Assembly: GCF_988243305.1 (NCBI RefSeq)
Contig: NZ_OZ547136.1
Strand: one strand, 5' to 3'
DNA length: 64,000 nt
How positions within the stretch are numbered: the stretch's first letter is position 1; each line of letters begins with the position of its first letter. Both the position numbers and the translations under genes were made by a program. The notes beneath the pieces are model-generated. The model ran no database searches. It was not told where the DNA came from and was given only the letters and a program-made list of their open reading frames with translations. Shown here piece after piece: positions 489 through 3,100 of the stretch.

Positions 489-692
489 TCAGTTAATCCC
501 CGTTTGCACCGAAAGAATATGCTGCAAACTTTCTACCATAATGCGCCCCGACTGAAATAAGCCTTCCTGGATTTCGTTGTTAACATTCACAGCGTGAACC
601 AGGGAGGCTAATAACACCACTTGCAAGAAGGCAAAAATAAACGCACCGATAATCATAATATGCGTCAGGGGGATTTTCCTTTGCTCCTTCAT
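489..692 (-). CDS. hypothetical small membrane protein (67 aa)
   Basis: ORF with one hydrophobic helix (IMIIGAFIFAFLQVVLLASLV); its ATG overlaps the stop of the upstream lipoprotein gene (ATGA at 689-692). Confidence 0.4.
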   Translation of the reverse strand: MKEQRKIPLTHIMIIGAFIFAFLQVVLLASLVHAVNVNNEIQEGLFQSGRIMVESLQHILSVQTGIN

Positions 693-1111
693 TTTAAATA
701 ACCCACAAACTGACCTTCTTTCATTAAGGCGACTTTTCCTGTGTGATGATAAACAATGACGTTATACAGACCTGACTGATAAACAGTGGCATCTTTATTG
801 TCTTCATCAATTGCACATAATGAATCATTGAGATAAGCAAAGTTTTTACTGCTCATTCTAAAGGTCATGCCAAATCCTTTATAAATGGCTTTCTTTGCCG
901 CCTGGGCATGTTGTGCGGCTTCTGCATTTTTAAATGCCTGCGCTTCGGATGCACTTAAAATAGCCGTCTGACGCTGTTGTTCTGCGAGATAACAGGTGTC
1001 ATGGCTGACGCCCTGCGCCTGGCAATCTGCGATGCGGGAAGTGGGTGAACTACAGCCAGCCAGTAATATAACCGCCAGCAGGGAAAACGATTTAATGGAG
1101 CTATTCATCAT
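689..1111 (-). CDS. putative lipoprotein (140 aa), co-transcribed downstream of the trimeric autotransporter
   Basis: Signal peptide with lipobox LLAGC; 53-bp gap to the upstream adhesin gene, same strand. Confidence 0.55.
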   Translation of the reverse strand: MMNSSIKSFSLLAVILLAGCSSPTSRIADCQAQGVSHDTCYLAEQQRQTAILSASEAQAFKNAEAAQHAQAAKKAIYKGFGMTFRMSSKNFAYLNDSLCAIDEDNKDATVYQSGLYNVIVYHHTGKVALMKEGQFVGYLK

Positions 1112-1164
1112 TGTTAACCTTAAATAATGTACGGAAAATTGCGAATAAGAAATTGCTGTTAAAA

Positions 1165-2181
1165 TTAGAACGAATATCCCACGCCGACACCCGCACCGAA
1201 ATCAGATTGTGTATCCGCAGAAATACCTGCTTTAAGTACCGTATGCGTTCCGGCATTAAAAGATGTTCCTACAGACACCGCAGATTCACCGTTGAACGTT
1301 CCCGCTCCCGCTGACACCATCATCAAGTCACCGGTTTTCACCTGTGGTTGTGAGGCGATAGCGATGGCAGATGCAGTTCCCGCATTGGCTTCTTTACGAT
1401 TGTCCTCAACTTCGTTTTTCAGAGAATCGAAATGGTTATTGAGCGTGTTAATTTGTTGGCTGTTATCTGCGACCCGTTTTTGCGTGTTGGTTAACTGTTG
1501 CTGCGTTTGTGCGGAATCTTGTCTCAGACTTTCAATTTGCTCATGTGCCTGGACAGACTTCTGCGCCAGACTTTGCATTTGTTTATCGTATTGAGCCCTT
1601 TCTTTTTGCTGTTGTGCTGCCACATCGGTTGTCAGTGCATTCATTTTCTGCCCTTGTTCCGTGGTAGTGCGCTGATTAGCCTCATTTTGAGCCGCCAGCC
1701 TGGCATTAATCATCTCCTGATAATGCGCGGTATTTTGCGTATCTCCAGTCGCGGCGAGCGTTTTTTGTGTGGCTACGATCTGCGCCTGTTGCTCTGTAAT
1801 TTGCGTTTGCTGGGCATCAGTTACCGCAGACTGTCGGGCGTTGATCATGCTCTGATAACGGGCGGTTGTCTGTACATCACCTGTAGCGGCAACGGTTTTT
1901 TGTCCTGCGTCAGGATCTGTCTGGACAGGGGGAGTCTGAGTGGTATCAGGTGTTTCAGAAGGGATGTAGTGATGTTCAGTCAAATAGGTATACGCAGCGG
2001 GGCTGTTGTCTGTGCGTTCTAAAAAGCGGGTAATCTTCTGCTCAATCTCCGATTGCGACATGCCAGAGTTAATGGCTGAAAGCTCTGTTGCCGCCGCTTC
2101 AATGGTATCACCAGCTAAAACAACAGGGCTGGATGTTGCTGAAATTATGAGTGCCAGTAAAGCTACGTTTACAGTTTTCAT
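1165..2181 (-). CDS. short trimeric autotransporter adhesin-like protein (YadA-type C-terminal anchor, coiled-coil stalk)
   Basis: 338-aa ORF; N-terminal signal peptide; C-terminus ...GESAVSVGTSF...FGAGVGVGYSF resembles the YadA membrane anchor; two tandem 45-aa stalk repeats. Confidence 0.7.
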   Translation of the reverse strand: MKTVNVALLALIISATSSPVVLAGDTIEAAATELSAINSGMSQSEIEQKITRFLERTDNSPAAYTYLTEHHYIPSETPDTTQTPPVQTDPDAGQKTVAATGDVQTTARYQSMINARQSAVTDAQQTQITEQQAQIVATQKTLAATGDTQNTAHYQEMINARLAAQNEANQRTTTEQGQKMNALTTDVAAQQQKERAQYDKQMQSLAQKSVQAHEQIESLRQDSAQTQQQLTNTQKRVADNSQQINTLNNHFDSLKNEVEDNRKEANAGTASAIAIASQPQVKTGDLMMVSAGAGTFNGESAVSVGTSFNAGTHTVLKAGISADTQSDFGAGVGVGYSF

Positions 2182-2214
2182 TCATTTTCTCTTGTTCAAA
2201 ATAAGTCGCATTAA

Positions 2215-2231
2215 TGTTTCTATAAGAAACA
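2215..2231. promoter_or_regulatory. inverted repeat TGTTTCT-ATA-AGAAACA in the adhesin/HTH divergent intergenic region
   Basis: Read directly; 7-bp arms; same half-site recurs at 2344-2362. Confidence 0.35.
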
Positions 2232-2343
2232 AATAATATTGTTTTAAGAAATAAACTGCGTTGCAATTTAATCGAAATCTACGCCGCCATTTGTGTGATG
2301 TAAAGCGCATTTTTGTCTGGTGTAAGCGTGAACACCACCAATA

Positions 2344-2362
2344 AGAAACAAAAAATGTTTCT
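2344..2362. promoter_or_regulatory. everted repeat AGAAACA-AAAAA-TGTTTCT in the same intergenic region
   Basis: Read directly; the 10-mer ATAAGAAACA occurs at both 2222-2231 and 2341-2350. Confidence 0.35.
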
Positions 2363-2547
2363 TATATAAATAAAATCGAAAATCATTTTGTGCTCTTTCA
2401 ATGTAAAAAAGAGTAAAGACTTGTTTTGATAAGCGAAATAAATTCTGTTTCTGGACTAAACGTGAAGCGGTTCCTGATGTGTGCTAAAATGCGTTTCTTT
2501 GATAAATCTCAATTTTTAAGAGGTTTACGCCAGGCAGGAAAATTTAA

Positions 2548-2910
2548 ATGAATGAATTTGAGAAGATTTTTAATGAAATGAATCTGGACCGGGCATTGCT
2601 ACCGATCCTTTTTCGTTCGAACCGGTCAACAGTGTGGAAATATTTAAGTGGCGATAGTACGGCTCCTGCCTCAGCTATGTCACTGATTATGCTGTTGCAG
2701 TTAATCCAGAAACGAAACCCCGATCTGTTAGCCGAATGGTTAACGCTTTCTGATTTCACCATTCCGCCAGAAGTTTACCTGGACCAGCCTGATTACTGGA
2801 AAGGGTGGGTGTATACGCAACACAAGGTCAATAAAAACGTCCTGGAATATCTAAAAAAACATTATCCGGATGAAGACCAAAAAAACATGAATAAAGGTAG
2901 TGACGAGTAA
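2548..2910 (+). CDS. hypothetical small protein (120 aa), possible HTH DNA-binding protein
   Basis: ORF divergent from the adhesin gene across a 366-bp AT-rich spacer; helix-turn-helix-like segment RALLPILFRSNRSTVWKYLSG. Confidence 0.45.
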   Translation: MNEFEKIFNEMNLDRALLPILFRSNRSTVWKYLSGDSTAPASAMSLIMLLQLIQKRNPDLLAEWLTLSDFTIPPEVYLDQPDYWKGWVYTQHKVNKNVLEYLKKHYPDEDQKNMNKGSDE

Positions 2911-2929
2911 TTTGCCAATGCCAGTTAAT

Positions 2930-3100
2930 ATAGCGGAGGCGGCCTACGATTCGGGCGCAGACTTCCAGGCATGATAAGACGCGCCCGCGCCGCATCAGGC
3001 ATCAGCGCATAACCGCCGGATGCGGCGTAAACGCCTTATCCGGCCTACAATTCGGGCATATTTTGTAGGCATGAAAAGACGCGTCAGCGTCGCATCAGGC
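2930..3100. repeat. REP/BIME cluster (several REP units)
   Basis: Canonical REP cores, e.g. GCCGGATGCGGCGTAAACGCCTTATCCGGCCTAC and GCCTGATGCGACGCTGACGCGTCTT (reverse strand). Confidence 0.8.

Follow-up and report, generated by a model that had tools for sequence, protein, structure and literature searches.

O-island 29 at the cueR–ybbJ junction, probably an old Escherichia cassette with a YadA-type adhesin operon

The 2.6 kb that separate cueR from ybbJ are O-island 29 (OI-29) / S-loop 43, known from earlier work on O157:H7, which carries z0638, z0639 (gmrA) and z0640. We consider it very probable that OI-29 is an old Escherichia cassette, a YadA-type adhesin operon with a divergent gene, that has no mobility genes of its own and whose haplotypes are exchanged via the flanks. 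The low-G+C cassette combines an adhesin operon, encoding a trimeric autotransporter (TAA), a lipoprotein and a small membrane protein, with a divergent 120-aa gene, a REP/BIME cluster closing the ybbJ side. Both names come from the literature; S-loop 43 refers to O157 Sakai, where the adhesin gene is ECs0548 ('Saa-like protein'). The island has been in catalogues since the first O157 genomes and is the subject of its own paper; as an island, it is nothing new.

The window, a stretch of 64,000 nucleotides from RefSeq assembly GCF_988243305.1 (contig NZ_OZ547136.1), contains 2,609 bp between the two core genes according to the ORF list (positions 486-3094, Table 1). In the annotation of K-12 MG1655, cueR ends at 514400 and ybbJ starts at 514401, leaving a spacer of 0 nt with abutting stop codons. 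The initial annotation had placed the two genes next to each other in K-12, and had described an interval enlarged by about 2.6 kb that holds an adhesin module, has a REP/BIME cluster at its ybbJ end and lacks an integrase or IS. Each of these points is borne out. Four genes lie in the interval. Three are on the minus strand and encode a 67-aa membrane protein, a 140-aa lipoprotein and a 338-aa trimeric autotransporter with a YadA anchor; the fourth, a 120-aa ORF, is divergent. Its G+C content is 44%, falling to 31% in the spacer between the TAA gene and z0640, compared with 57–59% in cueR and ybbJ. The last ~10 codons of ybbJ differ by haplotype, ending in ...IIRAVIA in the window and ...HIRAVSS in K-12. 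The HlyD-family adaptor gene has a stop codon that overlaps the start codon ATG of cueR. It is the final gene of the OI-28 / siiEA-type island and only provides context, being outside OI-29; K-12 retains a frameshifted remnant of it of ~100 nt.

Table 1. Features at the cueR–ybbJ junction of the window.
Feature	Position	Strand	Basis
HlyD-family type I secretion adaptor gene, 3' end	1-77	+	Annotation of near-identical genomes
cueR, left core flank	78-485	+	ORF list; K-12 annotation
67-aa small protein gene	489-692	-	ORF list; RefSeq: hypothetical protein
140-aa lipoprotein gene (z0638)	689-1111	-	ORF list; primer mapping
338-aa YadA-family trimeric autotransporter adhesin gene (z0639 / ECs0548 / 'GmrA')	1165-2181	-	Pfam; PDB anchor matches; primers
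AT-rich divergent regulatory spacer (TAA/Z0640), putative	2182-2547	.	31% G+C; two palindromes
120-aa ORF z0640	2548-2910	+	ORF list; primer mapping
REP/BIME cluster	2940-3101	.	Palindrome pattern; Rfam naRNA4
ybbJ (NfeD family), right core flank	3095-3553	-	ORF list

Both the position between cueR (ybbI) and ybbJ and the absence from K-12 agree with OI-29, and the published OI-29 primers map onto the borders of the window's island and onto each gene. Outside the REPs, the island is 96.6% identical at the DNA level to O157:H7 genomes, including EDL933. Site and gene order are the same as in EDL933, and so, closely, is the length, 2,609 bp compared to 2,643 bp. The window contains an allelic variant. 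Its lipoprotein and TAA genes lie 31 bp closer together, the TAA stalk has 94% identity, and the REP cluster differs in composition, with 77.5% identity.

Far from being present in K-12 and essentially all E. coli, the module was found in 1,416 of 5,426 complete E. coli genomes (26%). The empty K-12-type junction is present in 3,205 genomes (59%), and 966 carry a different gene of 407 aa at the same site, which has no Pfam, NCBIfam or PADLOC match. OI-29 and the 407-aa gene occur together in at least about 165 genomes. Such five-gene forms, found in E. coli, also occupy this junction in E. whittamii and Escherichia sp. E1V33. The E. albertii junction contains the 407-aa gene alone, and in one genome of a cryptic clade a scar joins the 3' end of z0640 to cueR. 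In most Enterobacteriaceae the cueR/ybbJ junction is without a spacer: the genes overlap by 4 nt or are 0–5 nt apart in Enterobacter, Klebsiella, Kluyvera, Lelliottia and Salmonella arizonae. The same-site five-gene forms in E. whittamii and Escherichia sp. E1V33, together with the abutting genes elsewhere, therefore point to a polymorphism of long standing in Escherichia, at a hotspot with several alleles.

Sequence divergence is consistent with this age. Island alleles differ by 3–9% between E. coli lineages, and the passenger of the adhesin is diverged. When E. coli is compared with E. whittamii, DNA identity is 93–95% for the island genes and 87–93% for the flanking core genes; from these identities the island would be roughly as old as the core. 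It was proposed that pathogenic E. coli lineages gained OI-29 recently and independently about four times (Yang et al. 2018), with the island scattered over four clades (phylogroups E, F, B2-ST95 and D) in a tree of 153 strains. Its low G+C content and an ancestral-looking K-12-type junction fit this scenario as well. We nevertheless regard it as unlikely. In E. whittamii and Escherichia sp. E1V33 the site is likewise filled, two more Escherichia lineages have remnants there, and recent spread would be expected to give near-identical copies rather than alleles 3–9% apart. Phage and plasmid searches found no vehicle. Because the occupants of the hotspot predate E. coli, four independent acquisitions by pathogens are disfavoured.

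In the history that we favour, OI-29 would have long resided at the cueR/ybbJ junction in Escherichia, at first alongside the 407-aa gene next to cueR. Vertical descent, deletions and the exchange of entire haplotypes, by homologous recombination within the core genes on either side, could then have produced the four alleles now seen in E. coli: empty, OI-29 only, 407-aa gene only, and both. Such recombination through the flanks is plausible. The O157 cueR allele shares 98.8% identity with the one in Escherichia sp. E1V33, while neighbouring core genes reach only ~92–94%. The initial annotation had preferred acquisition by homologous recombination over site-specific integration. This preference remains plausible given the lack of mobility machinery and the O157/E1V33 similarity in cueR, but it is incomplete, since the island is old in the genus and its site has nested forms and deletion scars. 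Its history is probably one of deletion and flanking homologous recombination, not of recent site-specific integration. Among the nested forms, any direction of change, gain or loss, is tentative.

The K-12-type junction has no deletion scar, and its ybbJ tail (ACC CTA CAT ATC CGA GCC GTC TCG TCT TAA) resembles that of Salmonella more than that of Escherichia with the island. This gives the empty allele an ancestral look, which sits awkwardly with an occupied site in every other sampled Escherichia species. Alternatively, the empty junction could be secondary, the island having been fixed in ancestral E. coli and then lost in A/B1-type lineages by clean deletion or by import of an empty allele. 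All five non-coli Escherichia representatives sampled are occupied or scarred at the site, and each of the 3,205 empty junctions has at least 99% identity across 400 bp, a uniformity that suggests a single young haplotype. Upstream of cueR, K-12 also bears a clear scar left by deletion of the neighbouring OI-28, and deletion derivatives were found elsewhere (L010, ST131). However, the K-12 junction itself is scarless, and a simple deletion would not bring back a Salmonella-like ybbJ tail. Import of an allele is possible, yet no donor has come to light. We give a secondary origin of the empty junction somewhat less than an even chance.

ORF list, annotations and repeat and tRNA checks revealed no integrase or transposase ORF, IS, tRNA or flanking direct repeat in or beside the island. 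The hallmarks of a classical integrase-borne genomic island (recombinase, tRNA/att, direct repeats) are thus missing. No target-site duplication or border repeat was found at the island edges. CTTAA, shared by the ybbJ end in K-12 and the end of the 407-aa gene beside cueR, was considered as an insertion point but, at 5 nt, is too short. Carriage by a mobile vehicle was likewise rejected: there was no phage match, and the two 'plasmid' matches are 4.9-Mb records and therefore mislabelled chromosomes, leaving no copy on a true plasmid. An anti-phage defence function was discarded as well, as PADLOC gave coiled-coil noise alone, for the adhesin.

It is conceivable that the cassette arrived by site-specific integration and that the recombinase of the element was lost afterwards. 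In Pseudocitrobacter faecalis a homologous cassette is located ~1.3 kb from a gene for a 628-aa large serine recombinase, and the chromosomal location of the cassette differs between genera. In the Escherichia forms inspected, however, no recombinase, att-like direct repeat or tRNA is present, and the borders fall at the stop codons of convergent genes. We regard this route as very doubtful and retain deletion and flanking recombination as the probable history.

The central gene of the cassette encodes a 338-aa protein with a Pfam YadA_anchor (PF03895, E=1.6e-11) at residues 279–338. A search of PDB sequences matches it to the solved anchors of AtaA (5e-7) and Hia. The protein starts with MKTVNVALLALIISATSSPVVLA|GD, read by eye as a putative Sec-type signal peptide. 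Residues 100–270 show weak matches to the coiled-coil families SMC, ATG16 and CCDC93, and no head-domain Pfam family was detected. The passenger is hypervariable, with 67–77% DNA identity compared to 95% for the anchor. From these sequence features, the protein would be exported via Sec and its C-terminal β-barrel anchor would insert in the outer membrane, which would present the variable coiled-coil passenger on the cell surface. The C-terminal YadA_anchor is shared with short TAAs of Enterobacteriaceae of the YadA, Saa, Eib and SadA/SadB type, and the putative N-terminal signal peptide and putative coiled-coil passenger would correspond to theirs; OI-29 adds the 67-aa membrane protein and the divergent 120-aa gene.

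The same ORF has been published as GmrA, a DNA-binding activator of fliA, on the basis of EMSA and ChIP-qPCR at PfliA. The gmrA deletion mutant was reported to have a complemented defect in motility and flagellation, and adherence of an OI-29 deletion mutant to HeLa and Caco-2 cells was unimpaired. Taken together, these data would make GmrA a cytoplasmic transcription activator at the fliA promoter and the island a motility regulation locus rather than an adhesin locus. The gmrA deletion, cloning and tagging primers, however, all map to the 338-aa ORF, which begins with the putative signal peptide and ends in the YadA membrane anchor. The only match with a DNA-binding name is TMF_DNA_bd, a coiled-coil family, at E=0.079. 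The earlier annotation of z0639 / ECs0548 was 'Saa-like protein', and RefSeq names the product a YadA family autotransporter adhesin. A cytoplasmic activator is therefore improbable in our view. We lean slightly towards 'GmrA' being an outer-membrane trimeric autotransporter with an indirect effect on fliA and motility; the regulator of the cassette, if any, would be the Z0640-family protein acting on GAAAC-N7-GTTTC. The indirect effect may arise, for example, from envelope or surface signalling, or from a polar or expression artefact. As GmrA has been published, cited and repeatedly covered in reviews as a laterally acquired transcription factor yet bears the sequence hallmarks of a surface adhesin, it deserves experimental re-examination.

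The 140-aa lipoprotein (z0638) contains the lipobox LLAGC. It has no Pfam match and, in a search of PDB sequences, no similarity to a solved structure at E≤1; no relationship to SadB was found for this reason. Its gene lies downstream of the adhesin gene, an arrangement like that of the Salmonella sadA–sadB pair. In other genera, homologues adjoin YadA-anchor genes. The start of the 67-aa gene, the last of the adhesin operon, overlaps the stop of the lipoprotein gene. Its product has one hydrophobic segment, and homologues with 39–47% identity occupy the same position in Lelliottia and Pseudocitrobacter. The conserved synteny suggests that both products, lipoprotein and small membrane protein, probably act as dedicated accessory factors. 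The entire cassette of adhesin, lipoprotein, small membrane protein and 120-aa gene is seen again in other enterobacterial genera, a recurrence that points to dedicated accessory or regulatory partners for short autotransporters.

The z0640 product belongs to a narrow enterobacterial family with a possible HTH. Its similarity to Pfam MqsA_antitoxin is weak (E=0.12; best 0.012, in 2 of 13 homologues), while NCBIfam gave no match and a profile search of PDB sequences no relevant one. An AlphaFold2 model built with the 13 homologues is poor (pLDDT 57), and Foldseek against the PDB returned nothing better than E=5.7. The initial annotation had described an adhesin module with a small regulator. 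The adhesin part stands; a regulator is a tentative label for the 120-aa ORF, given weak HTH-like similarity (best Pfam E=0.012–0.12) and no fold match. The spacer between the divergent genes contains two palindromes, GTTTC-N5-GAAAC (2216-2230) and GAAAC-N7-GTTTC (2345-2361). Across Escherichia haplotypes, the arms of the latter are conserved and its internal spacer is variable. A scan for promoter consensus sequences did not exceed the shuffled expectation.

The REP/BIME cluster consists of three full REPs (2967-3001, 3015-3047 and 3067-3101) and a REP tail (2940-2947), with a period of 100 nt. The units are imperfect palindromes of ~35 nt with a GCC(G/T)GATGCG core in alternating orientation. 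Rfam assigns positions 2968-3045 to naRNA4, a REP-pair family, with 71.9 bits against a gathering score of 59.5, and the REP segment matches at 21 places in the median E. coli genome. A model in which recombination between REPs produced the nested deletions is unsupported, since the five-gene form has no REP in the spacer between its 407-aa and 67-aa genes. The elements probably terminate or stabilise the transcripts of z0640 and ybbJ, which converge here. Palindrome length, alternating orientation, period and high copy number are the same as in REP/BIME elements, including naRNA4. In contrast to these, the last REP runs into a coding region: the cluster is extragenic save for a 7-nt overlap with the end of ybbJ, where this REP provides the stop codon (3095-3097).

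In the window, cueR and ybbJ are separated by 2,609 bp (486-3094) containing four ORFs. The two genes are indeed neighbors in K-12, as stated in the initial annotation: in MG1655, the last base of cueR is 514400 and the first base of the ybbJ stop codon is 514401, and the convergent pair abuts with zero spacer. The expansion of the interval, previously put at ~2.6 kb, is confirmed, and it carries the proposed adhesin module. No integrase or transposase ORF was found in the island in either the ORF list or the annotation, in agreement with the earlier reading that mobility genes and IS are missing. 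Neither a tRNA within the island nor direct repeats at its borders were found. The G+C content is 44% in the island and 31% in its divergent spacer, and 57-59% in the flanking genes. A type I secretion gene of the HlyD family (OI-28/siiEA island) has its 3' end at window positions 1-77, and its stop codon overlaps the cueR ATG. A ~100-nt frameshifted remnant of the end of this gene is found in the K-12 ybaT-cueR spacer (L001:3895-3993), a deletion scar of this neighboring island.

Features of the cueR-ybbJ region in window coordinates
Feature	Position	Strand	Source
cueR	78-485	+	ORF list
67-aa ORF	489-692	-	ORF list
140-aa lipoprotein, lipobox LLAGC	689-1111	-	ORF list
338-aa ORF, YadA_anchor	1165-2181	-	ORF list + Pfam
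120-aa ORF	2548-2910	+	ORF list
REP tail	2940-2947	.	repeat analysis
Full REPs, orientation alternating, 100-nt period	2967-3001, 3015-3047, 3067-3101	.	repeat analysis
ybbJ	3095-3553	-	ORF list

The REP/BIME cluster noted on the ybbJ side consists of three full REPs and a tail, and its match to Rfam naRNA4, a REP-pair family, exceeds the gathering score. The REP segment has a median of 21 matching places per E. coli genome. The last REP includes the ybbJ stop codon. The YbbJ tail ...IIRAVIA and a stop codon within a REP are common to all occupied forms of the locus; K-12 has ...HIRAVSS.

The island is O-island 29 (OI-29) of O157:H7 EDL933 (z0638, z0639 and z0640; 2,643 bp), the topic of Yang et al. 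2018 (PMC5826968), and in O157 Sakai the same island is known as S-loop 43, its adhesin gene ECs0548 being called 'Saa-like protein' (PMC2323221). As a feature it is therefore already known. It matches O157 genomes, including EDL933, at 96.6%. When the primers of Yang et al. are mapped to the window, the arms used to delete OI-29 have their ends at the cueR stop and within the ybbJ tail, z0638 corresponds to the lipoprotein and z0640 to the 120-aa ORF, while the deletion, cloning and tagging primers place gmrA/z0639 on the 338-aa YadA-anchor ORF. The gmrA cloning primer starts at ATGAAAACTGTAAACGTAGCTTTA, and the FLAG primer ends on the codons for ...GVGYSF.

The module is not shared by K-12 and essentially all E. 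coli. Among 5,426 complete genomes, the contiguous K-12-type junction is present in 3,205, each at ≥99% identity, and OI-29 DNA in 1,416 (≥80% of its length in 1,370); none of the OI-29 copies is on a plasmid record. An unrelated 407-aa orphan gene occupies the cueR-ybbJ site in 966 genomes, its stop codon abutting the cueR stop. Since the K-12 junction is absent from only 2,217 genomes, at least ~165 must contain both occupants, presuming that K-12-junction genomes hold neither elsewhere. This five-gene form was seen directly in two loci, L008, with IS903B inside the lipoprotein gene, and L009. The 407-aa gene is intact in F11 (L007:2501-3724, minus strand) and a decayed pseudogene in ST131-type genomes (L004:6201-6879); it has no Pfam, NCBIfam or PADLOC match.

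We scanned GTDB species representatives with YbbJ and mapped the surrounding genes. In Enterobacter, Klebsiella, Kluyvera, Lelliottia, Raoultella, Salmonella arizonae and others, cueR and ybbJ either share 4 nt at their ends or are separated by 0-5 nt, and the empty junction is thus the ancestral state at the family level. In all other Escherichia representatives scanned, the site is either occupied or scarred. The five-gene form sits there in E. whittamii and Escherichia sp. E1V33, E. albertii has the 407-aa gene alone, and MOD1-EC7003 has the 407-aa gene with a remnant of the 67-aa gene. In L010, labeled E. coli, a scar joins the z0640 3' end to cueR; the 92-94% identity of its flanking core genes suggests a cryptic clade. 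Inserts of ~2.8-3.8 kb also lie at the cueR-ybbJ junction in Citrobacter, Phytobacter, Kosakonia and some further genera, making the junction a hotspot beyond Escherichia. The inspected insert, from Citrobacter sp. FP75 (L015:8479-11309, 2.85 kb), encodes a 714-aa protein of the PA5441 family and a 238-aa protein, and ~20 other loci were compared by size alone.

The secondary origin of the K-12-type empty allele, to which the occupied or scarred site in each other sampled Escherichia species points, is somewhat doubtful, as the K-12 junction is scarless and its ybbJ tail looks ancestral, with codons nearer those of Salmonella than of other Escherichia. This allele may have been kept from the ancestor, or imported and then spread. 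The last ~10 ybbJ codons (window 3095-3130, K-12 L001:4402-4437) differ by ~30% between island-bearing and K-12-type haplotypes, mostly at synonymous sites, while the remainder of the gene is ~96% identical.

The island genes are 93-95% identical to those of E. whittamii at the DNA level, and ybbJ, qmcA, fetA and fetB 87-93%, which gives the island a roughly core-like age. The cueR genes of O157 and E1V33 are 98.8% identical while neighboring genes differ by 6-7%, direct evidence for haplotype exchange by homologous recombination at the locus. We interpret OI-29 as a long-standing occupant of a multi-allelic hotspot, transmitted with the chromosome. It lacks mobility machinery of its own, no copies were found on plasmids or phages, deletions occur, and some copies hold IS insertions. 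The published idea that OI-29 was gained recently and independently four times is at odds with this old chromosomal transmission and with the lack of mobility machinery and of plasmid or phage copies, and we argue against it. The preference of the initial annotation for homologous recombination over site-specific integration fits the same observations and the deletions; its interpretation as a whole is partly supported.

The most interesting by-product is the conflict between the GmrA label and the adhesin sequence. Yang et al. described Z0639/GmrA as a motility activator that binds the fliA promoter, and reported that adherence is unchanged on OI-29 deletion (PMC5826968); the transcription-factor label has been repeated in later reviews. 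Judged from its sequence, Z0639/GmrA is a predicted trimeric autotransporter that would be secreted and anchored in the outer membrane. At its N-terminus, MKTVNVALLALIISATSSPVVLA|GD can be read as a Sec signal peptide, residues 279-338 match YadA_anchor (PF03895, E=1.6e-11), and the protein matches the solved AtaA and Hia membrane anchors. Its sole similarity found to a family named for DNA binding is to the coiled-coil TMF_DNA_bd (E=0.079). While the motility phenotype may be real, a direct transcription-factor mechanism is hard to reconcile with this predicted architecture. We found no remark on the discrepancy in the literature searched. Between E. coli lineages, the adhesin DNA is hypervariable in the passenger (67-77% identity) and steady in the anchor (95%). 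In ST95-type (L005:7962-8693) and some other genomes, ~730 bp separate the annotated adhesin start from z0640, compared with 366, and this spacer includes additional adhesin-like coding sequence; the ST95-type passenger may be longer or disrupted.

Cassettes made up of a Z0640-like gene divergent from the adhesin, a lipoprotein and a small membrane protein also occur elsewhere on the chromosome. Outside Escherichia, homologous cassettes were located at L092:1096-9936 (Pseudocitrobacter faecalis, near a gene for a 628-aa large serine recombinase), L088:4316-6842 and L067:1424-4537. Two of the cassettes, from a Pseudocitrobacter MAG and a Lelliottia, lie beside the qmcA-ybbJ operon at its qmcA end, and Enterobacter asburiae contains the adhesin-lipoprotein pair only. 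The recurrence in other genera speaks for the cassette being a functional unit. From synteny, an accessory role for the adhesin is probable for both the lipoprotein and the 67-aa protein, and Z0640 is a candidate regulator. Z0640 has no significant Pfam or NCBIfam match (best, MqsA-HTH, E=0.012-0.12), and a poor structure model gave no fold or PDB match. The AT-rich adhesin-z0640 spacer contains a palindrome, GAAAC-N7-GTTTC (2345-2361), a candidate operator, with arms kept and spacer variable among O157, ST95-type E. coli, E. sp. E1V33 and E. whittamii. A second palindrome site is located in the same spacer at 2216-2230.
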